A DNA stretch of 64,000 nt from Candidatus Binatia bacterium (lineage in GTDB: Bacteria; Desulfobacterota; Binatia; Bin18), in assembly GCA_963422435.1 (NCBI GenBank), contig OY729511.1, positions 3,850,105-3,914,104 of the forward strand. Direction: 5' to 3'. Of the stretch, positions 4,124-62,640 are shown one piece after another. The translations under genes and the position numbers were made by a program. The notes under the pieces are model-generated. The model searched no databases. It saw only the letters and a program-made list of their open reading frames with translations, and was not told the DNA's origin. Numbering within the stretch: the first letter of the stretch is position 1; each line of letters starts with the position of its first letter.

Positions 4124-4238
4124 GGAATAAGACCCCCGACCACGAGCCCGCCGAAATCCTGCCCGCCGGGATAGCCATAACCCGGCGATTTGCTACGCTA
4201 TCGTATAGACCGGGACAGGAGGAGCGGACAGAAAAACT

Positions 4239-5570: not shown

Positions 5571-5673
5571 AGAGAGCCTGCCCTTGAGCGTCCTTCGACT
5601 TCGCTGGCGCTACGCTCAGGACGAACGGAGAAGAAGAGAACCCAGCCGAAGGGTGGACAGAGGAGACAGTGCA

Positions 5674-6474: not shown

Positions 6475-6524
6475 ACCGGGGAACCCACCCCGCCGCTCCG
6501 AGGAAGGGACAATACTATCCTCAC

Positions 6525-8150
6525 TTACTTCCCCATCCTTTCGTCCAGGAATGCGCTGACCTTACCAATCCCAATGCGCTCCTGCTCCAGGGTGTCACGG
6601 TCACGCACGGTGACGGTCTGGTCCGCAAGCGTGTCACCGTCAATCGTAAAGCAGTAGGGCGTACCGGCTTCATCCATGCGTGCGTAGCGTTTGCCGATGT
6701 TCTGCTTCACATCGAGTCGGACGGCGTATTGCGGGCGCAACCCCTGGTAGAGCTTCTCGGCCACCTCGGGCATACCACTTTTGTTGACCAAGGGAAAAAC
6801 GGCCGCCTTGATCGGCGCCAGCCGGGGGTGGAATTTCATATAGACCTTGCTCGGCCGGCTCTCGTCCGGTGTATAGGCTTCACACAGTGCCGCCAGGGTT
6901 CCACGGTCGGCGCCAGCGCTCGGCTCGATCACGTGCGGGAAATAGCGCTCGTTGCGCTGGTCGTCAAAATAGCGCAGCTTGTCCCCCTGACCACAATGGG
7001 TGGCGTGCTGGCGCAGGTCATAGTCGGCACGATGGGCTATGCCTTCCAATTCCCCATAGCCGGGCGCGGTAAACGGGAAACGATACTCGACATCGCTCGT
7101 GCCGGCTCCCTCTTTGGCGTAGTGGGCGAGTTCGTCCTGATCGTGCGCACGCAGTGTCAGGTTCTCGCCCGCCAGACCAATAGACTGCCACCAACGAAAA
7201 CGAGTGTCGCGCCAGTACTGATACCACTCTGCGGCTTCCTGGGGATGAATGAAGAACTCGATTTCCATCTGCTCGAACTCGCGCGACCGGAACGTAAAAT
7301 TGCGCGGCGTGACCTCGTTGCGGAACGCTTTGCCGATCTGCGCAATCCCGAACGGCACCCGCACCCGATTGGTATCCAGCACATTCCAGAACTGGGTAAA
7401 AATTCCCTGGGCCGTCTCCGGACGCAGATAGGTAACCGCCGACGGATCTTCGACCGCGCCGGTCGTGGTCTTGAACATCAGATTAAAAGGCCGCGGCTCA
7501 GTAATCTCCCCGCCACAGAACGGGCATGGCGGCTGTGGCAATTCGCCAGCTACGCGCTGCTCGGTGGCAAGCTGCCCAACCAATTGGTCCAACCCGATGT
7601 CAATCGGCGACGCTTCCTGTTCTCGTCCCTCAGTCAGGAGCGCCAGCGTTTCCGCTGGCTTGCGGACAAGAGCCAGGTTCGGGGCGCTCTTTTTTGCGGT
7701 CTTTTCTCCCCAGCGCTTCACGCTTTTGACAGTCACATTCCCCGCTTCATGCAGCTCTTTCAGCGAGGCATACCAGTCACTCTCGTGAATCATCTCATCA
7801 ATATGATCGTACCGTACGAGCTTCTTACAGTGACGGCAGGTGCTCATCAAATCGGAGAACCCGCCCACATGACCCGAGGCTTCCCAGACTTTCGGGTTCA
7901 TAATAATGGTCGCGTCCACGGGAACGATCTCGATGGGCCGACCGTCCGGACCAGGGGCCGGGCAACGGACCACGTCTTGCCACCAGGCTTCCTTGAGGTT
8001 GCGTTTCAGTTCAGCGCCGAGCGGGCCGTAATCCCAGAAGCCGTTAATGCCGCCGTACAATTCGGACGACTGAAAGATAAACCCGCGGCGTCGGCATAAC
8101 GAGACAATAGGGTCCATTGATTTTGTTGCGGGCGGAGTCTGTTTGCTCAT
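6525..8150 (-). CDS. glyQS: Glycine--tRNA ligase, alpha2 homodimeric type
   Basis: 541-aa translation matches class II GlyRS (IVSLCRRRGFIFQSSELYGG, FRNE, GIAHRADYDL). The start may be the second Met at 8117. Confidence 0.9.
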   Translation of the reverse strand: MSKQTPPATKSMDPIVSLCRRRGFIFQSSELYGGINGFWDYGPLGAELKRNLKEAWWQDVVRCPAPGPDGRPIEIVPVDATIIMNPKVWEASGHVGGFSDLMSTCRHCKKLVRYDHIDEMIHESDWYASLKELHEAGNVTVKSVKRWGEKTAKKSAPNLALVRKPAETLALLTEGREQEASPIDIGLDQLVGQLATEQRVAGELPQPPCPFCGGEITEPRPFNLMFKTTTGAVEDPSAVTYLRPETAQGIFTQFWNVLDTNRVRVPFGIAQIGKAFRNEVTPRNFTFRSREFEQMEIEFFIHPQEAAEWYQYWRDTRFRWWQSIGLAGENLTLRAHDQDELAHYAKEGAGTSDVEYRFPFTAPGYGELEGIAHRADYDLRQHATHCGQGDKLRYFDDQRNERYFPHVIEPSAGADRGTLAALCEAYTPDESRPSKVYMKFHPRLAPIKAAVFPLVNKSGMPEVAEKLYQGLRPQYAVRLDVKQNIGKRYARMDEAGTPYCFTIDGDTLADQTVTVRDRDTLEQERIGIGKVSAFLDERMGK

Positions 8151-8356
8151 AAGGTTGATCTCATTTTGTGTGTACTATCCTCCCGGTTGGTACAGCCGGA
8201 CTGGGCGGCGTGCATGATATTGGATGGCCCTGACCTCGGCAAGGGAGCAGGCCCGCGCCCCCTTCGATGCTGCTTTGGACAGGCCCCTTTGCGTCGGGGA
8301 TCGGACACGGTACAAGTAAGCGCGAAACAGTCATTGTGTCTGGCAAGGAGCAAACC

Positions 8357-9598
8357 ATGGACAAAGCTTTGGACGGTATCCGTGTTCTTGACATGACCCA
8401 CGTCCAGATGGGGCCTTCTTGTACCCAGATTCTCGCCTGGCTTGGCGCGGACGTCATTAAGGTCGAACTGCCGGGGCGAGGCGATATCACCCGCCAGCAG
8501 CTCCGGGACCTGCCCGATGTTGATAGCCTGTATTTCACCATGCTCAACTGCAATAAGCGCAGCATCACCATCAACACCAAGACTCCGAAAGGGCAAGATA
8601 TTTTTCGCAAGCTGGTCGAAGTGTGCGACGTGCTGGTCGAAAACTTTGCACCCGGTGCGCTGGACCGCCAAGGATTCAGTTGGGAGGTCATCCGGCAGAT
8701 CAATCCACGCATGATCTATGCCTCCGGCAAGGGGTTCGGCCCCGGTCCGTTCGCAGACTGCAAGGCATATGAGACCGTCGCCCAGGCCATGGGCGGGGCC
8801 ATGAGCACGACGGGCTGGGATGACGGCCCGCCGACCAGCACGGGAGCCCAGATTGGAGATTCCGGTACAGGCATGCATCTGGTGGCCGCGATTCTGGCAG
8901 CCCTCTTTCAGCGCGAGCAAACCGGGTCCGGTCAGCGGGTTGAGGTCGCCATGCAGGACGCGGTGCTGAACCTGTGTCGAGTCAAGCTGCGCGACCAGCA
9001 GCGGCTTGTCCACGGCCCCTTGAAGGAGTACCCACAATATCCCGATAAGACCTTCGGCCCAGCCGTGCCGCGCTCCGGCAACGCCTCCGGTGGCGGCCAT
9101 CCGGGGGTGGCCCTCAAATGCAAACCCGGCGGCCCCAACGACTACATCTATGTGGTCGTCCAGGCCCAAGTCTGGCAACCGCTAATGCAGCTCATCGACC
9201 GTGAGGACCTTATTGATAACCCGGAGTACGCCACGCCGGAGGCGCGTCTCTCGCACCTGGATGACTGTTTCGCGGTAATTGAAGCCTGGACCCAGAAGCA
9301 CACCAAGTACGAAGCCATGCAACGCCTCAACACGGTCAACGTGCCCTGTGGTCCGATCCTGGACATGAAAGAGCTGATGGAAGATGAGTCGCTAGCCGCG
9401 CGGGATATTGTGGCCGAAGTCGAGCATCCGGAGCGCGGACGGTTCAAGACAGTCGGCTGTCCGCTTAAACTTTCAGATTCTTCGGTCGAGGTCACGACTT
9501 CGCCCCGCCTTGGCGAGCATACCCAGGAAATCCTGCGGGAACTGGTCGGGTACGACGACGAAGAGGTTGAGGCAGCCCGGACCGAGGGCGCAATCTGA
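8357..9598 (+). CDS. frc: Formyl-CoA transferase (CoA-transferase family III)
   Basis: 413 aa. The N-terminus ([37 protein letters not shown]...[15 protein letters not shown]) is near-collinear with Oxalobacter formigenes Frc, including the glycine-rich [10 protein letters not shown] loop. SD AAGGAG upstream. Confidence 0.85.
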
Positions 9599-9622
9599 CA
9601 CCACTTCGCACGCACTCTCCGC

Positions 9623-11188
9623 ATGTCACTCATTACCTGGTCGTGGATCTTTCTCATCTTTTATATCGGCGGCATGTTGGCCATCGGCGTGTTTGCCGGG
9701 CGACGGGTCAAGCACGCTGACGACTTTGCCACCGCACGCGGCGCATACGGACCCTTATTTCTCGCGTTTGCCTTTGCCGCGACCACGGCCAGCGGCGCCA
9801 CCTTTCTCGGCAGCTCGGGCCTTGGCTACGAGTGGGGCCTGCCGACGATGTGGGGGTGCTTCCTGTACCCGACCGGGATGTATGTCGGCGTGTTGATCGC
9901 CATGCGCCTGGTTACCACCTCGGGCCATCGGTTCGGGAACCGCTCCATACCGGAGTACCTCGGGGACCGCTACCAATCCGAAGGCATCCGGATACTCATC
10001 TCGGTCTTTTCCTTAGTGCTATTTTTCTATCTGGCCGGGCAGTTGGTGTCCGGGCTGGTGATGTTCGAGATTATGCTGGGCCTGTCCCCCCTCTGGGCGC
10101 TGCTCATCACCACCACCGTGTTATTGATTTATGTCGTGCTCGGCGGCGCGCATGCCGACATCCTGACGGATGGGGTGCAGGGCTTCATGATGCTGCTGGT
10201 CGCGCTGATGGTGATCATCCTGTTTCTGACCGGATTTGGAGTAGACAGCGAAAGAGCGGGCCTGCCGGGCATTATCGACAGCCTGACCGAGCAGGACGCG
10301 TACCTGGTCGGCGTGCTGAATGCCGAGACCGCGCTGTATCATTCCTGGTGGTCCGTTGTGGCCATTTTTATTTCACACATACCCCTCGGCCTGCTGCCCC
10401 ATCTCGGGAACAAACTCTGGGCCTTAAAAAGCGTGAGCCAACAGCAATCGTTTATCAAACTGGCCTTCACGTTTGGGCTGACGCTGGGCATGCTCGGCTT
10501 GGGCGGTCTCCTGGCCCGCGCGATATTGGGCGATGCGCTTTATGCCGAGGGGGCGAACCCGAATCAGGCCCTGCCCCTCCTCTTCATCGAGCTGTTCCCA
10601 ACCTGGCTCGCCGCCCTCATTGGGGTGGGCGTGCTGGCGGCGATCATGTCCACCGCGGATGGGCTGGTCATCTCCTCATCCCAGGTGATTGCCAACGATC
10701 TCTACCGTCGGACCATCGTGCCTCGACTCAAGCATCCTCCGAATGCTGCGCAACTGGACCAGCGGATTTTAGCCATCAGTCGGGTGGCGACTGTTGTTGT
10801 TCTGGTACTGTGTACCGCCCTGGCCTGGGCTTTGGTCGAGACCAATATCGCCCTCATTGTCTGGATCGGGAACGGCGGCATGATGGCGGCCTTTGCCGGC
10901 CCCCTCGTGGTCGGTGCGCTCTGGCGCGGTGTCACCCGCACAGGCGCTTATGCCGGCCTGATCAGCGGTTTCGTCACCTTCCTCGTGCTGCACACCCAAA
11001 TGATTGATCCCGCCTGGTTCGCGCCCGGCCTGCTGCACACTGCCGCCTCCTGGCTGTACGCCGAGGGACCAAGCCCGTTCTCCTGTGCAACGATAGGGGA
11101 ACTCATGTCGGTCGCCTGTACCTATGTCGTATCCAAAGCAACCCAACCGCTGCCTGAGACGCACGTGCAGGCGTTGTTTGAGTCTTGA
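9623..11188 (+). CDS. Sodium:solute symporter (SSS) family transporter, paralog 1
   Basis: 521 aa with ~13 predicted TM helices. SSS-type N-terminus (HADDFATARGAYGPLFLAFAFAATTASGATFLGSSG). About 75% identical to the ORF at 14324-15901. Confidence 0.8.
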   Translation: MSLITWSWIFLIFYIGGMLAIGVFAGRRVKHADDFATARGAYGPLFLAFAFAATTASGATFLGSSGLGYEWGLPTMWGCFLYPTGMYVGVLIAMRLVTTSGHRFGNRSIPEYLGDRYQSEGIRILISVFSLVLFFYLAGQLVSGLVMFEIMLGLSPLWALLITTTVLLIYVVLGGAHADILTDGVQGFMMLLVALMVIILFLTGFGVDSERAGLPGIIDSLTEQDAYLVGVLNAETALYHSWWSVVAIFISHIPLGLLPHLGNKLWALKSVSQQQSFIKLAFTFGLTLGMLGLGGLLARAILGDALYAEGANPNQALPLLFIELFPTWLAALIGVGVLAAIMSTADGLVISSSQVIANDLYRRTIVPRLKHPPNAAQLDQRILAISRVATVVVLVLCTALAWALVETNIALIVWIGNGGMMAAFAGPLVVGALWRGVTRTGAYAGLISGFVTFLVLHTQMIDPAWFAPGLLHTAASWLYAEGPSPFSCATIGELMSVACTYVVSKATQPLPETHVQALFES

Positions 11189-11265
11189 ATAAGTTTCGAG
11201 GATAGATATGCAGGCCATCTGAACTGACACGGCATAAAAAGTTACAGAGGGAAAGCGGTAGTCAT

Positions 11266-11589
11266 ATGGCAAGTAGCATAAAAATAGGTCTTCAGATCGT
11301 CAGGGCTGTCCATCGCGCTCACAGACAGTTTCTCCGAGAGGCTGAGAGAAGACGTAAGGCTGAGAGAAGACGTAAGGCTGAGGAAAGGGAAGCCGCACGT
11401 CATCAACGAGAGTACGCGCGCTTGCTCAAACAGCAATCGCGTGAGAGAGCCGCTTACGAGCGAGCACAAGCGGTTGCAGGGAAGAATAGGTTTAAGCGGA
11501 GTCTAGAAAGCGCTCAAGCAGCTTTCGACATGAGATGTCGAGAGCGGAAAATCCTTCGTGACTCAATAGTCAATGCAGTTCTAAAATAG
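11266..11589 (+). CDS. Small Arg/Lys-rich predicted coiled-coil protein (107 aa), unknown function
   Basis: Low-GC ORF. Highly charged (ERRRKAERRRKAEEREAARHQRE), with an 18-bp tandem duplication at the nucleotide level. Stop lies 11 nt before the next gene start, so it is probably co-transcribed. Confidence 0.5.
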   Translation: MASSIKIGLQIVRAVHRAHRQFLREAERRRKAERRRKAEEREAARHQREYARLLKQQSRERAAYERAQAVAGKNRFKRSLESAQAAFDMRCRERKILRDSIVNAVLK

Positions 11590-11600
11590 AGTGGAGAACA

Positions 11601-13028
11601 ATGGATGCTCAGTATATTACGGGAACGCTGGGAGTCTTATCTTTTTCCATCATCACAACTTACTTCTTAGTTCGTAATAGATTTAAGAAGCAGATTGCAG
11701 CATACCGCTCCATCTCTGATGCGGTCGAGAAGACCACTCAGAAACTGACTCAAACTGAAACAGAGCTGACCGAAGCCCAGCAGGGACTTGAGACTGTTCG
11801 AGACGAAACGAAGGAGCTTCAAGACCTCAAGGAGAACGCTGGGCAACTTAAGGCTCAGTTGGAAGAGTCATCAAAGCAACTCGAAGAGATATCTGTCGAT
11901 ATTGAATCCAAAGAAGATAGACTGGACACCCTGGACGGGCAACTTCACCAATTAATGTCAAAAGTTGACCTCTATTCTAGAGTCGATGAATTTGTTGAGC
12001 ATGGCCTATTCGAAGAGCCAGAGTATCTATTTGAAACTACAGAGCGCTTCGCTGAAGAAATCAAACGAACCCGCGAGAAGCAAAAAGAATTGATCAAGAA
12101 TAAAGAAGCTGTCACTCTTCCTAGTTCCCTTACAGTTTCGTCAGATAAAAGGCAGGGCAAGAAAATACTTGAAGGTCAAGTCAAGCTCATGCTGACCACT
12201 TTTAATATTGAGTGTGATCTTCTTATCGGCAAGGTTAATCCTGGTAATTTTGCACGTGCTTTGGAGCGCATTGAGAAGCTGGCGGCTACGCTCGAAAAAT
12301 CTGCCGCTACTCTACATTGTGGGTTCAACATTGAATTTGTTCGACTAAAATTCGAGGAATGTAGGCAGCAGTATCAATACAAACTCAAGAAGCAGGAAGA
12401 ACAAGAGGAACAACGCCTGATTCGTGAGCAGATGCGCGAGGAACAAAAAGCGATCAAAGAATATGAGCGTGCATTGGCCCAGGCGGAAAAGGAGGAGCGG
12501 GTATACCGCGACATACTTGAGAGGGTCCGCAACGAACTTGAGCAGGCTACCGCAGGTGATCGCCTTCTCATAGAACAACGGATTGCTGACCTTGAGAGAC
12601 AACTTGCGGAAGCTGAGGCAAAAGAGGAGCGTGCCAAGAGCATGGCTGAACAGACGCGTCGTGGCCATGTCTATATAATAAGCAATCTAGGCTCATTCGG
12701 TGAAAACGTATACAAAATTGGCCTTACTCGCCGTCTAGAGCCTTTGGATCGTGTGAAAGAGCTTGGCGATGCAAGTGTACCCTTCTCATTTGACGTCCAT
12801 GCCCTAATCTACTCGGATGATGCCCCGGCACTTGAAAAGGCTTTGCATCGTAAGTTCGCTCATAACCGAGTTAACGTGGTGAACCTCCGTAAAGAGTTTT
12901 TTCGTACTGAGATTACCGCCATAAAAGAAGCAGTTGAAAAAATAACCAATGGAGAAGCTGACTTTAAGCTGACCGCGGTGGCAGAAGAATATTATGAATC
13001 CAGACGACTACAGAGAGTAGAGACGTAG
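11601..13028 (+). CDS. Membrane-anchored coiled-coil protein with C-terminal GIY-YIG-like (T5orf172/DUF4041-type) nuclease domain
   Basis: 475 aa. N-terminal TM helix (ITGTLGVLSFSIITTYFLV). Then ~330 aa of heptad-rich charged coiled coil. C-terminus: GHVYIISNLGSFGENVYKIGLTRRLEPLDRVKEL (GIY-x11-YIG spacing, with the Arg and Glu in the expected places). The gene's GC (~45%) is well below its surroundings. Confidence 0.6.
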   Translation: MDAQYITGTLGVLSFSIITTYFLVRNRFKKQIAAYRSISDAVEKTTQKLTQTETELTEAQQGLETVRDETKELQDLKENAGQLKAQLEESSKQLEEISVDIESKEDRLDTLDGQLHQLMSKVDLYSRVDEFVEHGLFEEPEYLFETTERFAEEIKRTREKQKELIKNKEAVTLPSSLTVSSDKRQGKKILEGQVKLMLTTFNIECDLLIGKVNPGNFARALERIEKLAATLEKSAATLHCGFNIEFVRLKFEECRQQYQYKLKKQEEQEEQRLIREQMREEQKAIKEYERALAQAEKEERVYRDILERVRNELEQATAGDRLLIEQRIADLERQLAEAEAKEERAKSMAEQTRRGHVYIISNLGSFGENVYKIGLTRRLEPLDRVKELGDASVPFSFDVHALIYSDDAPALEKALHRKFAHNRVNVVNLRKEFFRTEITAIKEAVEKITNGEADFKLTAVAEEYYESRRLQRVET

Positions 13029-13093
13029 AGTCAAAAAGAGGCTTTTCAGAGCTTCCTCCTACCTTCTGACCTTTCAGCAGGAGACTCAGTTAG

Positions 13094-13366
13094 GTGGACA
13101 CAGGTCTCGGTGCTGCACTGCACGAGAAAGGCAGCCGTATGAAAGATCAAAGCGTTGTCGTGCATAGCGATCCTGACATTCTCGGTGGAACTCCCGTCTT
13201 TATAGGGACACGAGTTCCGGTGAAAGCGCTATTGGATTACTTCGCTGGGGGACATACTCTGGATGACTTTCTTGATGATTTTCCTACGGTAACACGCGCT
13301 CAGGCAGTAGCAGTCTTGGAGCAGGAGGGACAGTTGCCGGCGGGTGTTCATGCGCGTTCTGCTTGA
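13094..13366 (+). CDS. DUF433-family antitoxin-like protein
   Basis: HSDPDILGGTPVFIGTRVPVKALLDYFAGGHTLDDFLDDFPTVTRAQAVAVLE matches the DUF433 pattern. Probably starts at the internal Met (13139). Overlaps the downstream DUF5615 ORF by 17 nt. Confidence 0.6.
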   Translation: MDTGLGAALHEKGSRMKDQSVVVHSDPDILGGTPVFIGTRVPVKALLDYFAGGHTLDDFLDDFPTVTRAQAVAVLEQEGQLPAGVHARSA

Positions 13367-13728
13367 TGAGTGCGTCCCCCGGAAGATTCGAGGCGAACTG
13401 CCGAGCCATGATGTCCAGACCGTAGCCGAGATGGGCTGGGGAGGCACAAAGAAATGGAGCCTTGCTCCGCCGAGCCACCTCGGAGTTCGGTGTCCTGCTG
13501 ACCGTAGATCAAGGAATCCCATATCAGCAGAATATCGGGGGTCTCTCTCTGGCTTTGGTCATCATCAAAGCGTCAAGCAATGACATCAATGACTTGCGAC
13601 CCAAGCTGTCTGAGGTGTTACGAGTACGGGAGACGATTCAGCCTGGCCAAGTGGTACAGGTTGCCTCACCACACGCTCTGGCCGTTCACATCCTTATATC
13701 ATCCAGACGGTTTCTTTCTGCGGCGTAA
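13350..13728 (+). pseudogene. DUF5615 (PIN-like) toxin partner of DUF433, disrupted by a +1 frameshift
   Basis: N-terminal half (MRVLLDECVPRKIRGELPSHDVQTVAEMGWGG) is in the frame of 13344/13350. C-terminal half (NGALLRRATSEFGVLLTVDQGIPYQQ...PGQVVQV) is in the frame of 13462. One extra A in aaagaaatgg (~13447) explains the shift. Confidence 0.55.
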
Positions 13729-13806
13729 ATAATAAGGCATTGCTGCCTGGTCAGCGAACCGTGTAGTAAGAATGAAATCACACGTCTGGCCAAAGGAGGG
13801 CTTAGT

Positions 13807-14241
13807 ATGGCCATGTCAGAACTGGAAGCGCGCATCATCAGGCTCGAAGACATCGAGGCGATAAAACAGCTCAAGGCTCGCTACTGCGAAATCTGCGACG
13901 ATATGCACAACCCCGACAGAGTCACGTCGGTCTTTGCTGAGGACGCCATCTGGGAAAGTCCAGATTTCGGCAAGGCTGAGGGCCATGAGGCGATTCGTGA
14001 ATTATTTCGCAAATTCCAAAATATGTTCAGCTTTTCCCAGCACAACATCACGAACCCCATCATCGAGGTCAACGGCGCTCGCGCCACCGGCATCTGGTAT
14101 ATCATGGGTCCGTGGACGTATGCCGAAAATGACGACGAGAAATGGCTGGCCCTGCGCTATGACGACGACTACGTGAAAGTCAACGGGGAGTGGAAGTATC
14201 AGCACTTACGGGTCGCCCTGCGGATGACGGCCGATCGATAA
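13807..14241 (+). CDS. NTF2-like / SnoaL-like domain protein
   Basis: 144 aa; LEDIEAIKQLKARYCEICDD...WESPDFG...KWLALRYDDDYVKVNGEWKY resembles the nuclear-transport-factor-2 fold family. Confidence 0.65.
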   Translation: MAMSELEARIIRLEDIEAIKQLKARYCEICDDMHNPDRVTSVFAEDAIWESPDFGKAEGHEAIRELFRKFQNMFSFSQHNITNPIIEVNGARATGIWYIMGPWTYAENDDEKWLALRYDDDYVKVNGEWKYQHLRVALRMTADR

Positions 14242-14323
14242 CACCAGCCCCTGCGCGCCGTGTGGCAAAGCGGGGTCCGTGGAATCCCCAGACTTCCCTT
14301 TGGACGTGTAAGGAAACCTGCCC

Positions 14324-15901
14324 ATGACACTTATTACTTGGTCGTGGTTCTTCCTCATCATCTATATCGGCGGCATGATAACCATCGGGGTTGTGGCCCA
14401 GCGGCGCGTTAAACATGCCGACGACTTTGCCACGGCGCGTGGCGCGTACGGACCGCTGTTTCTGGCCCTGGCATTTTCGGCGACCACTGTGAGCGGGGCA
14501 ACCTTCCTGGGCTTGCCGGGACTGAGCTACACTTGGGGGCTGACTACAATGTGGGGCGTCTTTCTGGGTCCTGCCGGCCTGTGTCTGGGCATGTTGCTCA
14601 CCATGCGTCTGATCACGAACTCCGGCCACCGGTTCGGCAACCGCTCCATCCCCGAGTACCTGGGCGACCGCTACCAGTCCGAAGGCATTCGGGTCCTGGT
14701 CTCGCTGTTTTCCCTGTTGTTGTGTTTTTATCTGGCCGGACAGCTCGTGTCGGGCTTGGTCATGTTCGAGATTCTGCTGGGTTTACCGCCGCTCTGGGCG
14801 CTGATCATCACCACAACTGTGTTGCTGATTTACGTGGTGCTGGGTGGAGCCCATGCCGATATTATTGCCGACGGAATCCAGGCCTGTCTGATGCTGCTGG
14901 TCGCCGTTGTGGTCGTCGTGCTCTTCCTCATCGGCTTTGGGCTGGATGTGGGCGAATCGGGGAGGAGCGGATTCTTGGGACTGGTCGATAATCTGGCCGC
15001 TCAGGACGAGCACCTGGTGAGTACACTCAACACGAAAACCCCGCTCTATCACTCCTGGTGGTCGATTGTCTCGCTGGTGATTTCGTTCATTCCGCTGGGT
15101 GTGCTGCCTCACCTGGGCAATAAGCTCTGGGCCTTAAAACACAGCATGTACCAGAACCGCTTTCTGACCCTCACGACCATATTTGTCATCACCTTGGCCA
15201 TGCTGACCTTGGGCGGCCTGCTGGCTCGGGCACTGCTGGGCGAGGCCCTGTTTGCCGAGGGCGCGACCTCGAATCACGCCCTGCCGACCCTCTTCATCGA
15301 GCTGTTTCCGACCTGGTTGGCGGCCCTGGTCGGTGTCGGCATCCTGGCCGCCATTATGTCCACCGCGGACGGACTCGTCGTGTCTTCCTCTCAGATTATC
15401 GCCAACGACCTCTACCGGCGGAGCATAGTCCCACGATTGAAGCATCCGCCAACCGAGGCGCAGCTCGACCGCCAAGTTCTATACATCAGCCGGGTGGCGA
15501 CCGTTGCCGTGCTGGTCATTTGCGCAGCGATAGCCTGGTCGTGGGTTGAAACCAACGTCATGCTGATTGTCTGGATTGGCACCGGCTGCGTCATGTCGGC
15601 CCTGGCCGGTTCCCTGGTATTCGGGGCCCTGTGGCGCGGGGTCACCCTGGCTGGGGCCTACGCCGGGCTGGTCAGCGGCTTTGTCAGCTTTCTGGTTCTG
15701 CACGCCCAACTGGTCGACCCGGCCTGGTTTGCCCCCGGCCTGCTGCACACAGTCGTCTCCTGGCTTTATATCGAGGGCGTCAATCCGTTCTCCTGCTCGG
15801 CCCTCGCCAGCCTCACCTCGGTCGTCTGCACCATCATCATCTCCAAAGTGACCCAGCCCCTGCCCGAGTCGCACGTCCAAGAGCTGTTCGAGGGGGTGTA
15901 A
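14324..15901 (+). CDS. Sodium:solute symporter (SSS) family transporter, paralog 2
   Basis: 525 aa; collinear with and ~75% identical to 9623-11188. Confidence 0.8.
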   Translation: MTLITWSWFFLIIYIGGMITIGVVAQRRVKHADDFATARGAYGPLFLALAFSATTVSGATFLGLPGLSYTWGLTTMWGVFLGPAGLCLGMLLTMRLITNSGHRFGNRSIPEYLGDRYQSEGIRVLVSLFSLLLCFYLAGQLVSGLVMFEILLGLPPLWALIITTTVLLIYVVLGGAHADIIADGIQACLMLLVAVVVVVLFLIGFGLDVGESGRSGFLGLVDNLAAQDEHLVSTLNTKTPLYHSWWSIVSLVISFIPLGVLPHLGNKLWALKHSMYQNRFLTLTTIFVITLAMLTLGGLLARALLGEALFAEGATSNHALPTLFIELFPTWLAALVGVGILAAIMSTADGLVVSSSQIIANDLYRRSIVPRLKHPPTEAQLDRQVLYISRVATVAVLVICAAIAWSWVETNVMLIVWIGTGCVMSALAGSLVFGALWRGVTLAGAYAGLVSGFVSFLVLHAQLVDPAWFAPGLLHTVVSWLYIEGVNPFSCSALASLTSVVCTIIISKVTQPLPESHVQELFEGV

Positions 15902-15986
15902 GCCTGAAAATGATAGGTTGCTCAGCCATACGCTCTATGCTGCTTCTAGCCGTCCATCCAAGCGTTCCGAGAAGGGCTACTTATGA

Positions 15987-16268
15987 CGAGTTTGCCGAAC
16001 AGTATCCCTCCCTATCACTGCACTGCGCCAGGACGCCACGACCGTGTGAAAGCAAGTCAGCCAGTCGGACGACCCGTTTGTCATCACCCAACGAGGACGA
16101 GCCGCGGCGGTGTTATTGAGTGCAGAAGCCTACCAGCGGGTCGAGTCTGAGCGGCAGATACCCAGGCTCCTGGCTCAGGGGAAAAAAGAAATTGCTGAAG
16201 GGCGTGGTATCGACTTGGACACGGTACTCGCCGAGGCCGATGTACTGCTTGAAACTGAAGACTTGTGA
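15987..16268 (+). pseudogene. Phd/YefM-family antitoxin remnant with an in-frame TGA and no in-frame start
   Basis: Frame reads ...TVSLPITALRQDATTV*KQVSQSDDPFVITQRGRAAAVLLSAEAYQRVESE...LETEDL*. This matches Phd/YefM throughout but is interrupted by TGA at 16047-16049. The only nearby ATG is in another frame. The stop overlaps the next ORF's GTG (GTGA). Confidence 0.55.
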
Positions 16269-16420
16269 CCGTTGGATTCACCCCGTCCGCTCGGGCGCAA
16301 TTCCTAGCTGCCATTACGTACATCCGTCGCGACAACCCAGGAGCGGCGAGACAGTTTCGCCAACGCGCCAAGCAGATTCTCCGTCGGCTTGGACAATTTC
16401 CAGAACGCAGCCCGGCTCGT
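16265..16420 (+). pseudogene. ParE/RelE-family toxin N-terminal fragment, 3' half lost
   Basis: MTVGFTPSARAQFLAAITYIRRDNPGAARQFRQRAKQILRRLGQFPE matches the ParE N-terminus. The similarity is lost where the convergent secreted-protein gene ends (16420). Confidence 0.5.
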
Positions 16421-16938
16421 CAGATGATGGGGGTATCCTCCACATCAGTCATCTCCATGTGTTGGGTGCTCTGGTTCCACTCAAATGTCGTGGTCTCCCC
16501 TGGACTAGGGAAACCCGAGAGCCGGCACGTGCCACTCGCCCCTTTCAAAAACGCCTCCCCTGTCGTCGTTACGGTGAGCCTGGCCTCCGCAAATAAGACG
16601 CCATTATCATAAGCCTTGGCGGTGTGGGGCCCATCGCCGAGTTCGCCCCAGTTCCAGATGGCGACAAAACCGTTGTCGGTATCTCCACACACCTCTTGGG
16701 TATCGGGCCGCTGACTGCCGTATAGCATGGGAACTGGATTCGGAATGCCCTCTGCAATGAGGGCCCCATCGTTGAATTCAACGGTGATGTCTCCCTCAGC
16801 GTCACATTTCCATCCGCTGATCACCCCAACACCCGATAATTTGGTCCCGTCGCTCGGCACACCAAGGGCAGACTGGGCATGAACCAGAGCCGGGACCAGA
16901 ACAATGAGTGTAGTAGAAATACAATGCAGAAAAGACAT
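16420..16938 (-). CDS. Secreted protein of unknown function (signal peptide)
   Basis: 172 aa; N-terminal MSFLHCISTTLIVLVPALVHA-QS signal peptide. AGGAGG SD upstream. Confidence 0.55.
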   Translation of the reverse strand: MSFLHCISTTLIVLVPALVHAQSALGVPSDGTKLSGVGVISGWKCDAEGDITVEFNDGALIAEGIPNPVPMLYGSQRPDTQEVCGDTDNGFVAIWNWGELGDGPHTAKAYDNGVLFAEARLTVTTTGEAFLKGASGTCRLSGFPSPGETTTFEWNQSTQHMEMTDVEDTPII

Positions 16939-17092
16939 CAGTACCTCCTAACTAAGAAAGAGTCCTTTTTTCTTTAGCTCTTCTATTTATCATTCCGTTT
17001 AGCTGCCTCTCATTTTTCCCGCCGTCGTTTCCACAAGAAGAGCAACCAGTACAAAAACCGATTCATAGTTCTCTCCCGCTGGGCTATTCCTA

Positions 17093-17791
17093 TTAACTGA
17101 TATACAGGGAGAAAGTCGAAAGCGCAGCAGAAGACGGGAGGGTAATTTCAATCTCAACAGTGTCGTCTTCTATGACAGGGGACCACACCGGAGGGTCGGG
17201 CGGCAGAGGACCGTTTACAGCAGTAGACTCCTCTGCCTGTGGGAGGGGACCGTACCCTAGCGGAGGGTCAGCAGGCAGCTCACGAGTCTGGGGAGTGAAA
17301 TCGTGCTCTGTCAGGGGAGCAAAGGTTTGGATGGGGCCAACCGGACTAGAGAAGCGCAGTTCTGCGCCTGCGGGCAAGATGGCAGACACGGCAATTCGTA
17401 GCGCCATCGCACCGGGTGAGGTCACGCTGGGCGCACTGAGCAGCGTCCCATCGCTCAGCGTGGTCCATTCCAGACGTGGCGCCATATCGTCACGATAGGC
17501 AGCGGGAATCTCCCGGCCAAAGCCGATTTGCAAAGGGAAGTCCTCTCTCTGCTCCCACTCCGCTTGCTCAGAGTTGGTGACCGCTGGCAACGTAATGCGG
17601 AGTAATTGGGGAATAGGTGTATCCTGTGTGAGCGACTGCGCTTGCTGCGGCAGATGAGTGTCGTCCTCCACTTCTGGGGGTCTGAATGCGCCGTCAATTC
17701 CTTGTGCCTCGCCGATAGCCGAAAAACTGAGAACCAGGATGAAAAAAAAGGGCAGAAAGAGAATATGTAGAGAAAACACTGATAACCTCAC
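17093..17791 (-). CDS. Secreted or membrane-anchored protein of unknown function (GTG start, signal peptide)
   Basis: 232 aa; hydrophobic leader LHILFLPFFFILVLSFSAIGEA. Pro-rich C-terminal region. GTG start 3 nt from the large palindrome. Confidence 0.5.
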   Translation of the reverse strand: MRLSVFSLHILFLPFFFILVLSFSAIGEAQGIDGAFRPPEVEDDTHLPQQAQSLTQDTPIPQLLRITLPAVTNSEQAEWEQREDFPLQIGFGREIPAAYRDDMAPRLEWTTLSDGTLLSAPSVTSPGAMALRIAVSAILPAGAELRFSSPVGPIQTFAPLTEHDFTPQTRELPADPPLGYGPLPQAEESTAVNGPLPPDPPVWSPVIEDDTVEIEITLPSSAALSTFSLYIS

Positions 17792-17793
17792 AG

Positions 17794-17838
17794 CATCCCT
17801 AAGATATAGTTTTAGCCACTAATTATATCTTAGGGATG
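17794..17838. promoter_or_regulatory. 15-bp perfect inverted repeat (CATCCCTAAGATATA / TATATCTTAGGGATG, 15-nt spacer); candidate operator or RBS-sequestering hairpin
   Basis: Seen directly in the sequence. Lies in the AT-rich divergent region between the secreted-protein gene (17791, minus) and the XRE regulator (17947, plus). An 11-nt direct repeat AGATATAGTTT occurs at 17802 and 17856. Confidence 0.6.
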
Positions 17839-17946
17839 TTTCCCTATCACCATCAGATATAGTTTGTCAAGTAAATACCACTGTGGGTCAATTCATCCGA
17901 CCTAGAAGCGTCTTCATACTGCCCTTGAACTGCGAGGCGGTTATGT

Positions 17947-18270
17947 ATGGATGACCGAAAACTATTGGGAAAGCGGATCAAAAGCCTGCGAAAATCAAAG
18001 GGGCATACCCAGGAGCGGCTGGCGGAAATCATGGACATCAGTTCCAACTATCTGGCTGGCATTGAGCGAGGAGAGGCAAATCCAACCCTGGCTCTGCTTG
18101 AGCGTCTTTCCACGGGTCTGGAGGTCCCGCTGCCCGAATTGTTCAAGTATCGCCCGGAGGAAGGATACCAACCGGCCCAACTTCGCCAGAGGCTGGACCG
18201 GCTGGTCAACGAAGCCGGTGACGGAGAGCTGCCCCGGCTGACTCGTGTTTTTGAGGCGTTGTTGGAGTAA
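17947..18270 (+). CDS. XRE-family (Cro/C1-type) HTH transcriptional regulator
   Basis: 107 aa; LGKRIKSLRKSKGHTQERLAEIMDISSNYLAGIERGEANPTLALLERL is a canonical HTH_3 motif. Confidence 0.85.
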   Translation: MDDRKLLGKRIKSLRKSKGHTQERLAEIMDISSNYLAGIERGEANPTLALLERLSTGLEVPLPELFKYRPEEGYQPAQLRQRLDRLVNEAGDGELPRLTRVFEALLE

Positions 18271-18358
18271 CACCGGGGCGAAGGCCGCCCCGCTTTGCCA
18301 CGGGGTGTACACTCATACGTATTGACATTTATGGTGAGTAGAGACGAAAAAAGAGCGG

Positions 18359-18556
18359 ATGACCACGCACACAACGCAATTTGTCTATTGGGAGGAAGAT
18401 GGAGCGTGGCTAGGCTATCTCCACGAGTATCCTGATTACTGGACGCAAGGCGAGACGCTGGACGCCCTGAAAGACCATCTGCGAGACTTGTATGCTGACC
18501 TGACCGGCGGGGACCTGACCGGTATCCGCAAAATGGACGAATTAGCCTTGACATGA
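18359..18556 (+). CDS. hicB: HicB-family antitoxin (short, N-terminal domain only)
   Basis: 65 aa; FVYWEEDGAWLGYLHEYPDYWTQGETLDALKDHLRDLY matches the HicB N-terminal domain. Its stop overlaps the next ATG (ATGA). Confidence 0.6.
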   Translation: MTTHTTQFVYWEEDGAWLGYLHEYPDYWTQGETLDALKDHLRDLYADLTGGDLTGIRKMDELALT

Positions 18557-18768
18557 AACGAGTCGCTCTAGTCAAACGGATTGAAGGATTTGGTTGTATT
18601 TTGGTAAGGCATGGCGGTAGGCACGCCTCTCATCTGCATAGGAAACAATAACAATATTGGTATCGTAATCCGGTAACCGGAGTTTATCAGCCGGTTCCTC
18701 GTCAGCGGAAAATCAAAGAGAATCTAGCCAAGCATATTATCAAACAGTTGAGTAATCCTTCTGGTTAG
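18553..18768 (+). pseudogene. hicA: HicA-family toxin with an in-frame TAA at codon 33
   Basis: MKRVALVKRIEGFGCILVRHGGRHASHLHRKQ*QYWYRNPVTGVYQPVPRQRKIKENLAKHIIKQLSNPSG*. Both halves resemble HicA (EGFGCILVR.GGRH...H and the C-terminal ...L...HIIKQ), joined by TAA at 18649-18651. Confidence 0.5.
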
Positions 18769-18840
18769 ACGGTAAATAGATACCGCCAAAGCCGCCCCGG
18801 TCTGAGGAATTGGAGACACACTGCACGGAGGACACACACC

Positions 18841-19488
18841 ATGCTGAAAATCTACGGGACGACCCTGAGCAATTATTACAGCACGGCCAAGGCCGCGCTG
18901 GTCGAAAAGGGACTCGCCTTTGAGGAAGTCCCGGTTATGCCGAGCCCGAAACCCGAAGTCCTAGCCAAAAGCCCGATGGGCAAGGTGCCCTATATTGAGG
19001 TCGAAGGCACAACCTTGACCGAGACAAACATCATCTTCGACTATCTCGAAGATATCCAGCCACAGCCGGCACTGTATCCCAGCGACCCCTGGGCTAGGGC
19101 CAAAGTCAAAGAAATCATCCGGTGTGTCGAGCTGTATCTCGACACACCGGCGCGGCGCCACCTGCCGACGGTGTACTTCGGCGCGCCGGTTGATCAGGCC
19201 GCATACGACGCAGTCCGGCCATTACTGGAAAACGGGCTACGGGCGCTCAAGCAACTCGCCCGCTTCGAGCCCTATATCGCCGGCGACACATTTACCTTCG
19301 CCGACCTGACCGCCTATTTCGAGATGCGCTTCACCAATCTGCACACTACGCAAATCTATAACTGGGACATTACGGCTGACGTGCCCGGCCTTGGCGAGTA
19401 TTTGCACTTGGTCGGCGAACGACCGGCGGTCAACGCGGTCGATTCCGTCATGCAACGAGATTTTGCGGCCTTCAAGAACAAGAGCTAG
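18841..19488 (+). CDS. Glutathione S-transferase
   Basis: 215 aa; N-terminal thioredoxin-like GST domain (MLKIYGTTLSNYYSTAKAALVEKGLAFEEV...PMGKVPYIEVEG) and C-terminal helical domain. Confidence 0.8.
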   Translation: MLKIYGTTLSNYYSTAKAALVEKGLAFEEVPVMPSPKPEVLAKSPMGKVPYIEVEGTTLTETNIIFDYLEDIQPQPALYPSDPWARAKVKEIIRCVELYLDTPARRHLPTVYFGAPVDQAAYDAVRPLLENGLRALKQLARFEPYIAGDTFTFADLTAYFEMRFTNLHTTQIYNWDITADVPGLGEYLHLVGERPAVNAVDSVMQRDFAAFKNKS

Positions 19489-19504
19489 TCCGCAGTATCG
19501 AGCC

Positions 19505-20128
19505 ATGGGCAGCAGCAAGACCGCGCCGGCGATTCACTACCGACCAATGACCGTTGAAGACGTTGGGGCGGTGCCGATTGGTCATCAGGGCGACGAGCAG
19601 GAGGTCCGCGCGCGCATTCAAGACCTTGGATCAAGCGCGATATTGGCATTTGACGGTACGCAGCACGTCGGCCAACTCCAGTTTCGGCGCTACGCCGCGG
19701 ATACCCGTTCGCCCAAGGGGCTGTGGGACCCCCTGTATTGGGGCGAGTTCGGCAACGCCGCGCCCGCGCTGCCTGACCACAGCCTGTCCATTTACTGTTA
19801 CCACGTCGGCCAACTCGACGACACCGACGACCGAGACGCGCGATATCAGGGCCGAGGTATTGGCCTGCGTCTCTTGGACTCTTTTTTGGACTGGGCCAAG
19901 CAGGCCGGCTTCGAGGCGGTGACGGCCAAGGCTACCCCTATCCCACGGGCCGTCATGGCTTTTATGGGCGGGCAGCCACCCAAAGCCTATCTGGCACGCG
20001 GCTTTGAGGTCTTTTCGAGCGTGGTCGATACCGAGCTGCGCGATATCGTGAAAGACAGGCAACTCGTGCCGGCTGAGGCGGACTACGATAGCGCCGCACA
20101 GGTCAGCTATTGCGTGAAGTTTTTCTAA
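19505..20128 (+). CDS. GNAT-family N-acetyltransferase
   Basis: Motif A QGRGIGLRLLDSFLDWAKQAG. The start was chosen at the first ATG after the GST stop; 19546 is an alternative. Confidence 0.6.
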   Translation: MGSSKTAPAIHYRPMTVEDVGAVPIGHQGDEQEVRARIQDLGSSAILAFDGTQHVGQLQFRRYAADTRSPKGLWDPLYWGEFGNAAPALPDHSLSIYCYHVGQLDDTDDRDARYQGRGIGLRLLDSFLDWAKQAGFEAVTAKATPIPRAVMAFMGGQPPKAYLARGFEVFSSVVDTELRDIVKDRQLVPAEADYDSAAQVSYCVKFF

Positions 20129-20194
20129 GGCATAGTGCGCGAGCCATAGCGTACTTTTCGGTTCAACAGGGGACATAATGCCGAAGCTGAACCC

Positions 20195-20541
20195 TTGCTG
20201 GACATGTCATTTGAGGTGCCGAAAGGGGAGAGATTACGGTCAACGTCACGCTTGAAAATCCCGACGACCGCGCCGTCTTTGAGCGGGGATATGGCGAGGA
20301 ATCGTCCATTCGCCGTTCCAGCATTGACGCGATTGTTGATACCGGCGGCGTCATGCTGGTCTTACCGCAGAACGTTGTTGAACGGCTCGGACTGGAAACA
20401 CGACGGACCGTGATTATTTCCTATGCAGATGAGAGGAAAGAGGAACGCCATGTGGCTGGTCCCCTGACCATCCACATGGGCAACCGTTTTATGAGCACCG
20501 ACTGTATTGTCGGTCCTCCTCTGAGTGAGCCGCTGAAATGA
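20195..20541 (+). pseudogene. Retropepsin-like (clan AA) aspartic protease with an apparent 1-nt deletion frameshift near the 5' end
   Basis: Frame 2 gives MLDMSFEVPKGE. Frame 1 continues ITVNVTLENPDDRAVFERG...IDAIVDTGGVMLVLPQNVVERLGL...CIVGPPLSEPLK with the catalytic DTG motif. The only in-frame ATG (20353) lies downstream of DTG. Confidence 0.5.
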
Positions 20542-20650
20542 TGGATCGCTTCCCTCAGGTTGTCGCGTGAATCAGTAGGGGGGCCGCCTAGCCAAACGAC
20601 GCCACACTTGGTATTTAGGCTGGACACAGTAGACACAAAGGAGGCCAGGT

Positions 20651-21898
20651 ATGAAAGTATCCATGTTTCACCTGATGCCCTACCGGGACCTGCCGGATGA
20701 TTTTGAACAACGCTACCACTCGGTCTGGGTCGATCCGCCCTGGACGGAACTGGGCGACGCCGAGAAAGTCGGCCAGTACTATAACTGGACCCTTGACGAA
20801 CTGATCCATGCGGCAAAAGCCGGTGTGGATGGGGTCTGCGTTAATGAGCATCATCAGAATGCCTATGGCTTCATGCCCAACCCCAACCTGATGGGCTCGG
20901 TCCTGGCGCGGGCCACCAATGGGATGGACGTGGCCGTGGTGCAGATGGGATCTACGCTCCCTACGACCAACCCGCCCACACGCGTAGCCGAAGAGTACGG
21001 CATGCTGGATACCATAAGCGGCGGCCGCCTGGTGGCCGGCATGCCGCTGGGAACGGCCATGGATGCCACCTTGTGTGCGGGTATCACCCCGATTGAGCAG
21101 CGCGAGCGCTATTACGAAGCCCACGATTTGATCCTCAAGGCTTGGACCGCAGATGAGATATTCGCCTGGAACGGCAAATACTATCAGCTCCCCAAGGTCA
21201 ACGTCTGGCCGCGGCCGATCCAACAGCCGTACCCGCCCGTCTGGATTCCCGGACTCGGCAGCCTCAGCACCTGGGAATTTGCCGCTCAGCACAACCACTG
21301 CTACTGCTTTTTGAGCTATTACGGCCCCAAGGCGGGTAAAAACGTGATGGACGGGTTTTGGCAATTTATCAGCGAGCGTGGCGTTGAACCCAACCCCTAC
21401 CGTGCCGGCTTTCTGCAACTCGTGGCCGTGGCCGAAACCGACGCCAAAGCCGAAGCCTTGTACGAAAAGCATATCCAGTACTTCTATAACAAATCCCTGC
21501 ATATCCCGCCCGAATACTTCTTCCCGCCGGGCCACCAGGATTATCGCAGCCTGGAAAATAATATCCGCAAGGGCATCTTCAAGAGCTATTTCGATAAACT
21601 CGACGCCATCCCGAACTGGAAGTTCAAAGACTTTGTGGACGAGGGCTTTGTGATTGCCGGCAGTCCGGCAACGGTTCGCGACCTGCTCACCGATGCCGTC
21701 ACCGACCTGCGGATCGGCAATTTGATGGTCTTGCTGCATATCGGCTCCATGCCGCATGACTTGACCCTCAAAAACATCGATATGTTCACCAGCGAAGTCA
21801 TGCCCCATATCCACGATATGTGGGACAACCAGTGGGAGAATCACTGGTGGCCGGAAAAGCTGCGGACCAAGCGCCAGGCCTCCATTGCAGCCTTGTAA
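20651..21898 (+). CDS. LLM-class flavin-dependent oxidoreductase
   Basis: 415 aa luciferase-like monooxygenase-like translation; SD AAGGAGG upstream. Confidence 0.8.
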   Translation: MKVSMFHLMPYRDLPDDFEQRYHSVWVDPPWTELGDAEKVGQYYNWTLDELIHAAKAGVDGVCVNEHHQNAYGFMPNPNLMGSVLARATNGMDVAVVQMGSTLPTTNPPTRVAEEYGMLDTISGGRLVAGMPLGTAMDATLCAGITPIEQRERYYEAHDLILKAWTADEIFAWNGKYYQLPKVNVWPRPIQQPYPPVWIPGLGSLSTWEFAAQHNHCYCFLSYYGPKAGKNVMDGFWQFISERGVEPNPYRAGFLQLVAVAETDAKAEALYEKHIQYFYNKSLHIPPEYFFPPGHQDYRSLENNIRKGIFKSYFDKLDAIPNWKFKDFVDEGFVIAGSPATVRDLLTDAVTDLRIGNLMVLLHIGSMPHDLTLKNIDMFTSEVMPHIHDMWDNQWENHWWPEKLRTKRQASIAAL

Positions 21899-38029: not shown

Positions 38030-38105
38030 ATTTGACTGGCTGGAGAAGGGCGAAGTGGCGCGCAGTGTGATTCTGTATTGAAAGAGTATCTCACAGAGAG
38101 GCGGC

Positions 38106-38389
38106 ATGGAAGACGCTCACTCAATTCGTGCGCAGATCAGGTACGAAACCGACCGCACAGGCCCCCCGGAGGGCTTCCCGCAATTCCCCGACCTGCCGGG
38201 CAGGCGGTACACCGATCCCCGGTTTATGAGCTGGAAAAGCGGCAGCTGTGGCGCAAAGCGTGGCTGTTTGCCGGGCATCTGGATGAGATTCCAGAGCCAG
38301 GGTGTTTTAAGCTGTGGGAAACAGCCGGACAGCCGGTTGTCATTCTCCAGTCGGGGTCGTTGCCGATGTCGAGCCACAGCTGGGACTAG
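38106..38389 (+). pseudogene. Rieske non-heme-iron ring-hydroxylating oxygenase alpha-subunit N-terminal fragment, frameshifted and truncated before the Rieske CxH motif
   Basis: Frame of 38106 gives ...LPGRRYTDP. Frame of 38078 gives VYELEKRQLWRKAWLFAGHLDEIPEPGCFKLWETAGQPVVILQSG, then a stop. A 1-nt insertion near gatccccggttt links the two frames. Confidence 0.5.
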
Positions 38390-38586
38390 GCGTTGTGAAT
38401 CGGCAGGCCGTAGATGACGGGTCCTCCCTCGGTATGCATATGCACCTGGAGGATGCCGTTGCGGCGCTCCATGTTGAAGTAGGTGGCGTATTTCTCACGA
38501 TAGTCCTTGAACCGCGGCCGGCTCACAAACCCCAGGCGTTGTTCCCGCGCACGCGCGTTCGGCCGTTCGTCAGTCTTCGTACTCAT
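38386..38586 (-). CDS. Small ORF (66 aa), possibly the 5' fragment of a truncated gene
   Basis: Strong SD AAGGAGGA 7 nt upstream of the ATG. Ends convergently, with a 4-bp overlap, at the stop of the Rieske fragment. Confidence 0.35.
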   Translation of the reverse strand: MSTKTDERPNARAREQRLGFVSRPRFKDYREKYATYFNMERRNGILQVHMHTEGGPVIYGLPIHNA

Positions 38587-49226: not shown

Positions 49227-49234
49227 GCGCCAGC

Positions 49235-62622: not shown

Positions 62623-62640
62623 AGAAGAGGAGTGGATCCC

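Follow-up and report, generated by a model that had tools for sequence, protein, structure and literature searches.

Are several small genes that appear interrupted within a few kilobases of one another dead genes, or are they intact genes in a badly assembled sequence? We examined this question for a stretch of ~7 kb (positions 13350-20541) in a window of 64,000 nucleotides (nt) from contig OY729511.1 of a sponge-associated Candidatus Binatia bacterium (GCA_963422435.1); all coordinates refer to this window unless a relative is named. An earlier note on this DNA had reported five disrupted genes in the stretch, encoding a DUF5615 protein, Phd, ParE, HicA and a retropepsin-like protease, and had offered two readings: a genuine graveyard of addiction modules or a locally error-prone assembly. 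An independent assembly identical in sequence, the nature of the lesions and the state of the same genes in related genomes strongly support the graveyard. The best explanation, and in our judgement a highly probable one, is that the stretch is made up of gene-turnover slots between core genes, where small genes of a selfish or accessory kind come in, replace one another and decay. What was observed directly is the lesions, the fact that they are specific to the lineage, and the variability of the slots; from these we infer the process.

For comparison, a scan based on the transporter gene of the stretch, with one genome kept per species, gave ~30 syntenic loci (cited below by L numbers), nearly all of them titled Candidatus Binatia metagenome-assembled genomes (MAGs); the clade-wide comparison takes in ~25 related Binatia genomes at the species level. 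Lesions were positioned by base-level alignments to the orthologous loci, and families were assigned by a Pfam profile search combined with six-frame translation of the window. The core genes around the slots (SSF transporter, SnoaL, GST, GNAT and LLM oxidoreductase) align with those of the syntenic relatives from end to end at 85-93% nucleotide identity, whereas the segments between them do not align.

Agreement between independent assemblies

The Logan contigs of run ERR11641160 provide an independent assembly. An exact-protein look-up with the transporter retrieved a Logan contig of 13,984 bp that was 100.000% identical to positions 5599-19582, and a retropepsin fragment of 62 amino acids (aa) retrieved a second that was 100% identical to positions 19569-20735. 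Look-ups of the same kind with the LLM oxidoreductase and an alpha/beta hydrolase found nothing on record. The two contigs span every lesion, and the two assemblers agree over 15.1 kb.

Eight lesions were found (Table 1): three insertions (of 1 base, of 4 nt and a templated one of 30 nt), two T>G changes and three deletions or replacements. Seven of the eight are base substitutions, insertions of several bases or large deletions, and sequencing error does not produce changes of these types. The sole lesion that resembles an error is the additional A that turns AA into AAA in the DUF5615 gene. All five genes named in the earlier note are located where it had placed them, fall into the Pfam families it had given and are broken, but its description of the disruptions as single-site fails for Phd, which has two lesions, and for the retropepsin-like gene, which combines loss of the start codon with a deletion.

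If the disruptions were local errors of assembly or sequencing, the genes would in truth be intact. The DUF5615 lesion, a single-base insertion in a short run of A, is a known type of error on some platforms, and the independent assembly rests on one run that may share reads with the source assembly. Even so, we regard error as very improbable. Besides the perfect identity of the assemblies, the other lesions are T>G changes, insertions of 4 nt and 30 nt, an in-frame deletion of 102 nt and losses on the kilobase scale; long genes in the remainder of the window are free of frameshifts; and the same genes carry different lesions in relatives. Since the independent assembly is identical and most lesions are not error-like, the suggestion of an error-prone assembly is not supported. 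For annotation, this means that the pseudogene calls at 13.3-20.5 kb are trustworthy and that the local assembly need not be doubted.

Table 1. Coordinates of the features described in the text, with the lesion, match or arrangement that characterizes each.
Feature	Positions	Strand	State	Details
DUF433 (antitoxin-like partner), 75 aa	13139..13366	+	intact	PF04255, 64 bits (cut-off 23.6)
DUF5615 (PIN-like) toxin	13350..13728	+	pseudogene	one extra A within 13452-13454 (aaagaAAtgg)
Phd/YefM antitoxin	15983..16268	+	pseudogene	4-nt insertion at ~16003-16009; TTA>TGA at 16047-16049
ParE toxin, ~47 codons	16265..16404	+	5' remnant	Pfam columns 3-50 of 89
Secreted protein, 172 aa	16420..16938	-	intact	3' end abuts the ParE breakpoint
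Lysyl-endopeptidase-like protease, 232-aa open reading frame	17093..17791	-	N-terminal domain only	sixth broken gene
XRE-type helix-turn-helix regulator	17947..18270	+	intact	PF01381; full-length orthologs in nine relatives
HicB-like antitoxin, 65 aa	18359..18556	+	intact	4-nt ATGA overlap with hicA
HicA toxin	18553..18768	+	pseudogene	PF07927
30-nt in-frame insertion in hicA	18626..18655	+		contains TAA (18649-18651); not in L017 or L032
Retropepsin-like (clan AA) aspartic protease	20224..20541	+	pseudogene	ATG>AGG at 20224-20226; in-frame 102-nt deletion at ~20535-20537
Donor segment in the retropepsin gene for the hicA insertion	20413..20436	+		inverted repeat
Rieske and crotonase remnants, convergent	38078..38586	both	remnants	only other decayed spot found; PDB phmmer

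The DUF433/DUF5615 pair

The first two genes of Table 1 are co-oriented and overlap by 17 nt (13350-13366). We take them to correspond to COG2442 and the PIN-like COG4634, a predicted type II toxin-antitoxin (TA) pair; in the literature, no paper with both DUF433 and DUF5615 was found. The DUF433 protein is equal in length to the L008 and L012 copies and shows no indels. The additional A of the DUF5615 gene is missing from five relatives (L008, L010, L012, L019 and L023), whose DUF5615 protein is intact at 105 aa, and this comparison bears out the frameshift that had been called. The ancestral stop codon of DUF5615 has also been lost in the window, a change shared with L012. With the frame repaired, the protein matches PF18480 at 25.7 bits (cut-off 23.8). 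The intact L008 ortholog gives a weak PIN_10 match of 19.6 bits, below the gathering score, and a PDB sequence search with DUF5615 returned no match. Both genes are intact in the five relatives, and the ratio of nonsynonymous to synonymous substitution rates (dN/dS) across the clade is 0.02-0.2 for DUF433 and DUF5615.

The Phd/ParE pair and the truncated protease

The Phd gene was hit twice. Alignment to nine loci shows that the 4-nt insertion puts the conserved ATG (15983) out of the frame of the domain, and the codon that is TGA in the window is TTA or TTG in relatives. The earlier note had correctly called the nonsense mutation and had missed the insertion. Read with stops masked, the frame matches PF02604 at 48.5 bits and TIGR01552 at 44.5 bits; seven relatives carry intact orthologs of 93 aa. 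The GTG start of ParE overlaps the Phd stop by 4 nt (GTGA, 16265-16268). The fragment of ParE in the window scores 27 bits with PF05016, compared with 56.1 bits for the L003 ortholog, which covers columns 1-88 of 89. Identity with nine relatives ends at 16403-16406, whereas the relatives run on to a 96-aa protein, and ParE is thus truncated, as had been proposed.

Beyond the ParE breakpoint lies the gene for the 172-aa secreted protein, which has homologs of 30-49% identity in the same slot of six relatives and 82% nucleotide identity in L075; searches of Pfam and NCBIfam gave no match for it. Homology of L075 to this cassette ends at 16405, which is the point where the homology of ParE ends from the other side. 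Because both homologies stop at the same point, we conclude that recombination or deletion at this junction removed the 3' half of the ParE gene.

A sixth gene, the 232-aa open reading frame (ORF) at 17093-17791, is also broken. Its product matches residues 5-229 of P0002, a homolog of 370 aa, at 80% identity. P0002 goes on into a segment containing LTAHHC, presumably the motif around the catalytic His in S1 serine proteases, and no further homology to the rest of a P0002-type protease was found anywhere in the window. A segment of 47 bp (17093-17046) replaces 2.77 kb of L075 (4511-7280, an insertion sequence (IS) included), so roughly 2 kb of the protease gene is missing. In L075 an IS5-type element splits the protease gene, after which come a 494-aa ORF, with a faint match to the PPC domain, and the homolog of the 172-aa protein. 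The window has an 18-nt palindrome (94% complementary, 9-nt loop) at 17794-17838 and a related direct motif at 17850-17865, both located between the gene for the truncated protease and the divergent XRE gene. This palindrome may be an operator.

The earlier note had also held that the partners and neighbours of the disrupted genes are intact. This is correct for DUF433, the HicB-like gene, SnoaL, the SSF transporter, GST and GNAT, but not for the truncated 232-aa ORF. Genes for SnoaL, the 525-aa SSF transporter, the XRE regulator, GST and GNAT form long unbroken ORFs between the disrupted genes, and the lengths of DUF433, SnoaL and GST are unchanged wherever orthologous copies were aligned.

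The HicB/HicA pair and the retropepsin-like gene

The HicB-like protein has a weak UPF0150-like match in Pfam (E=0.043) and no PDB sequence match. It was assigned to HicB provisionally, because the gene overlaps hicA by 4 nt both here and in L017, where a copy that is also 65 aa long is paired with an intact 60-aa HicA. The HicA protein of the window scores 21.8 bits as it stands (cut-off 27) and 38 bits with the insertion removed; the L017 ortholog scores 48.1 bits. A nonsense mutation had been proposed here as well. The TAA codon is present, but it lies inside the 30-nt insertion and is not a point mutation.

In the insertion, 24 nt repeat part of the retropepsin gene, which lies 1.76 kb away, in inverted orientation, and the last 6 nt are a tandem duplication of AACAAT. 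Twenty nucleotides are the exact reverse complement of 20417-20436, where 0 such matches are expected, and all 24 agree with the L009 and L015 allele, which has a G at 20419; the inserted copy therefore keeps the older, ancestral sequence of the donor. Judged from its sequence, the insertion is a real mutational event and not a product of assembly. Its donor may have been the neighbouring retropepsin gene, or else a second retropepsin paralog with ATTGTTTCCTATGCAGATGAGAGG. An unusual long-range templated repair between neighbouring accessory genes is a conceivable origin, although we consider it rather doubtful. Two-switch template switching and microhomology end-joining were fitted by hand and rejected, as the CACG and CATGGCG coincidences give no consistent model.

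The start region of the retropepsin-like gene reads aaAGGggagag in the window and aaATGggagag in six relatives with an intact 139-aa ORF. The 102-nt deletion costs the protein 34 C-terminal residues, and the longest remaining ORF (62 aa) begins past the catalytic DTG. The motif is DTGG in the window and DTGA in relatives. A frameshift, as given in the earlier note, was not found; the gene should be annotated as carrying a start loss and a deletion, and the 232-aa ORF as a truncated protease. The window copy scores 27 bits with PF13650 (Asp_protease_2) and an intact ortholog 36.8 bits, and a TIGR03698 match of 43.5 bits is below the cut-off of 57.35. We considered whether this gene is one half of a two-gene TA module and rejected the idea, given that its neighbours differ in every context examined, both in Binatia relatives and in unrelated contigs. 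It is always solitary and is found beside a methylase, a STAND NTPase, transposases or an S8 peptidase/beta-lactamase. The family comprises >1,800 homologs; within its top 120 clusters, identity is 71-98% and nearly every protein has a length of exactly 139 aa. This uniformity is unusual. Members occur in contigs from several sources, of which one or more are named Acidobacteria.

Might the interrupted genes still give functional protein, through programmed frameshifting, through readthrough or as split or shortened variants? Frameshifting by +1 or -1 is known from some bacterial genes, and the remaining ORF fragments are coding-like in composition. Nevertheless, we give this possibility almost no weight. 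Five relatives encode DUF5615 in one frame without the extra base, the largest retropepsin ORF lacks the catalytic motif, half of the ParE domain is missing, and Phd would require two recoding events. TGA, TAA and TAG are all ordinary stops of neighbouring genes, which also rules out an alternative genetic code.

The same modules in related genomes

Intact copies were found in five genomes for DUF5615, in seven each for Phd and ParE, in six for the retropepsin-like gene and in one for HicA. Other lineages carry these genes with damage of their own that arose independently. The DUF5615 gene has shrunk to its first 75 nt in three relatives (L004, L005 and L006) and has lost half in L025, and in L032 it contains several indels. 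The closest relative, L012, shows a 1-nt deletion of its own in Phd along with a W85* change in ParE. In L023 (~13500-13760), an IS5-type element truncates Phd while ParE is intact. The hicA gene is deleted with one common junction in L006, L014, L020, L025 and L076, and L075 is similar. Finally, L004 and L011 have 59-140 bp in place of the whole 15905-18823 block (2.9 kb), and L011 has 38 bp at the retropepsin site. IS interrupt Phd in L023 and the protease in L075, and their activity thus has a part in the erosion of the locus; the stretch of the window itself has no IS. L075 contains IS5-type transposase genes at 4949-5715 and 10214-10965, one of which splits the secreted protease gene.

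The slot between GNAT and the LLM oxidoreductase is occupied in relatives by PIN and Phd-like genes, by HicA with a 109-aa HicB, by DUF4160 with DUF2442 or by a 480-aa gene, these families having been recognised from the sequences and not all scanned. In the GST-GNAT interval, the window is without ~1.7-1.9 kb that is present in several relatives. Because the same modules are found intact, differently broken or not at all between shared core genes, we refer to these intervals as turnover slots. All casualties in the stretch are accessory genes located in variable slots, and this is what they have in common. A search of the window for a tRNA or an Rfam RNA able to mark an integration site found none.

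When modules were counted across the clade, both genes were intact in 13, only the toxin was broken in 9, both were broken in 5 and only the antitoxin was broken in 1. In the window, likewise, DUF433 and HicB have outlived their toxins. The orphan hicB left by the hicA deletion encodes 58 aa with a new tail (..LPALSI), for example at 16771-16947 in L006 and at 14489-14665 in L014. Pairwise dN/dS among the orphan copies is 0.09-0.27 at dS of 0.3-1.2, the values being based on ~50 codons and not independent of one another. This hints that the orphan hicB keeps a function or is still under selection.

The rest of the window

Genes outside the stretch were mapped by a six-frame codon-margin score with manual checks; a sliding codon-usage frame profile was dropped, being too noisy and poor at discriminating strands. 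Elsewhere in the window the ORFs are long and near-continuous, and no long gene is frameshifted in the remaining ~57 kb. Two suspected frameshifts, at 41959-43355 and 49227-49852, proved to be ordinary adjacent genes, by eye hisH/hisA and moaC.

The decayed spot at 38 kb comprises two remnants for which Pfam gave nothing. The plus strand carries the beginning of a Rieske dioxygenase alpha subunit, ~60 residues that can be read only with a change of frame (8k0a_A, E=1.8e-6, residues 22-70), and the minus strand carries that of a crotonase-fold (beta-diketone) hydrolase, ~80 residues interrupted by an in-frame stop (2j5g, E=1.7e-3, residues 17-72). NCBIfam gave nothing for most of the small proteins.

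A count of pseudogenes outside the stretch had been suggested as a control. Run within the window, it found no similar density elsewhere: 6 of 14 genes are broken in the stretch and 2 of 52 in the rest (Fisher p=0.0007), these being small gene counts, with the census outside based on ORF continuity and spot checks and not on a full homology screen. Given these proportions and the spot at 38 kb, pseudogenes occur outside TA genes as well, with a strong concentration in the stretch.

Order and causes of decay

We propose that the genome inherited three type II TA pairs and, besides these, two proteases, one retropepsin-like and encoded by a solitary gene and the other secreted; all of them have been inactivated by ordinary mutations. 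Modules would arrive by horizontal transfer in permissive intervals and be held by purifying selection while active. Once a toxin was no longer needed, or became costly, mutations that kill it would be tolerated or favoured. Toxins would thus die first (DUF5615, HicA), the freed antitoxin would linger (DUF433, HicB) or decay (Phd), and deletions would finally clear the slot. Mutations that strike the antitoxin first would leave the toxin unchecked and be lethal, which would account for the rarity of such losses. The genes with two lesions (Phd, retropepsin) and those with large deletions (ParE, secreted protease) are probably older casualties than DUF5615 with its single lesion.

The surviving antitoxins might themselves be kept by selection, either as immunity against incoming toxins or as co-opted regulators, a proposal that we put forward only tentatively.

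Several points weigh against turnover in the slots as the explanation, in addition to the small counts of the density control. The Logan run is probably the same run that lies behind the source assembly, and because the Logan contigs come from one run, a systematic error at the level of the reads is formally possible for the additional A in DUF5615. A contig of the same species from another sample was not found when the metagenome collection was searched with the junction pattern and the transporter; the nearest was L076, at 94%. Counts of private substitutions, with which we tried to date the DUF5615 lesion, were not decisive: the window copy has 4 private amino-acid changes compared with 1-5 in relatives, and in the absence of a clear excess the lesion is recent or, less likely, spurious. 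The toxicity of the intact orthologs is a prediction from sequence. The orthologs in question (DUF5615 in L008, ParE in L003 and HicA in L017) are candidates for testing the predicted DUF433/DUF5615 TA pair.

The decay might also have little to do with toxins as such. If the genome is shrinking, any dispensable gene in a slot would be lost, and TA genes would be hit merely because they are abundant there. Non-TA genes are indeed broken too (the secreted protease, the retropepsin-like gene and the Rieske and crotonase remnants), and the window is without extra material that relatives have, such as the missing part of the GST-GNAT interval. The source contig is 3.92 Mb in length, compared with chromosomes of 4.5-5.2 Mb in the closest relatives, and the lineage may have undergone genome reduction. 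Neutral genome-wide decay alone, however, predicts neither the biased order within pairs, in which 9 modules have lost only the toxin and 1 only the antitoxin, nor the purifying selection on orphan hicB after the loss of hicA. We therefore consider loss unrelated to toxicity an unlikely account on the whole, albeit one to be taken seriously, and it is largely compatible with toxin-first decay. The earlier suggestion that toxins are selectively inactivated is accordingly upheld in part: the order of decay is biased as it implies, but Phd, two proteases and the remnants at 38 kb are dead too.

Other features of the region

The SSF transporter gene is duplicated in the window (9623-11188 and 14324-15901), the two copies having ~72% nucleotide identity. 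Several relatives have a third copy in tandem (L005-L010, L014, L016, L021, L023 and L025 are at issue), so the copy number is variable.

Immediately upstream of the decayed TA genes is an intact single-gene anti-phage system, PD-Lambda-1, at 11601-13028 (11189-11600 upstream), identified by PADLOC (E=1.4e-163) and by the Pfam domains DUF4041 and T5orf172/MUG113. The gene is located in an islet of low G+C content (0.46-0.50 vs ~0.60), and orthologs were found in two relatives only (L019 and L005). A perfect 18-nt tandem repeat occupies 11339-11374.

Short G+C-rich intergenic elements at ~4150-4200 and ~62560-62640, whose translations resemble PSPLPPGERE and PLPEGEE, look by eye like repeats of the repetitive extragenic palindromic (REP) type. 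Sizeable non-coding gaps are few in the window, and these elements are in two of them.

Comparison with known systems

Decay of this kind has already been described and is an ordinary way for such selfish genes to die. Examples from Escherichia coli are the chromosomal ccdO157 system, for which decay was described by Mine et al. 2009 (as cited in PMC2654758), and hok/sok, of which K-12 has inactivated copies (PMC2654758). As at our locus, chromosomal addiction modules there have degenerated, in one species or clade, by point mutation, insertion and rearrangement. Those cases, however, concern single systems in one species, whereas three families and two proteases are affected here, across ~25 species-level genomes.

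The survival of antitoxin genes beyond a working toxin, with orphan hicB under purifying selection, resembles the orphan antitoxins of the anti-addiction model (Saavedra De Bast et al. 2008, as cited in PMC2654758). Here, by contrast, neutralisation of incoming toxins by DUF433 or HicB is hypothetical.

The closest parallel is with Photorhabdus, in which TA systems cluster in small spots of high turnover and are lost by deletion or by pseudogenization of the toxin (PMC13617665). At both places TA genes occupy small high-turnover intervals between conserved genes, different systems have been acquired independently at the same location, and modules are lost by complete deletion or through a toxin pseudogene. 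Decay of the antitoxin only is the rarest class in both: the counts for toxin only, both and antitoxin only are 185, 186 and 8 in Photorhabdus (PMC13617665) and 9, 5 and 1 here. The differences are that our modules, from uncultured sponge-associated Binatia, are known from sequence alone; that all modules in the slots of this one genome are dead; and that the TA slots adjoin an intact PD-Lambda-1 gene, whereas TA systems in Photorhabdus rarely cluster with defence systems. A literature search found no paper with both 'Binatota' and 'toxin-antitoxin'. The locus provides a clean, clade-wide example, from an uncultured phylum of sponge symbionts, of the toxin-first erosion recently quantified in Photorhabdus.

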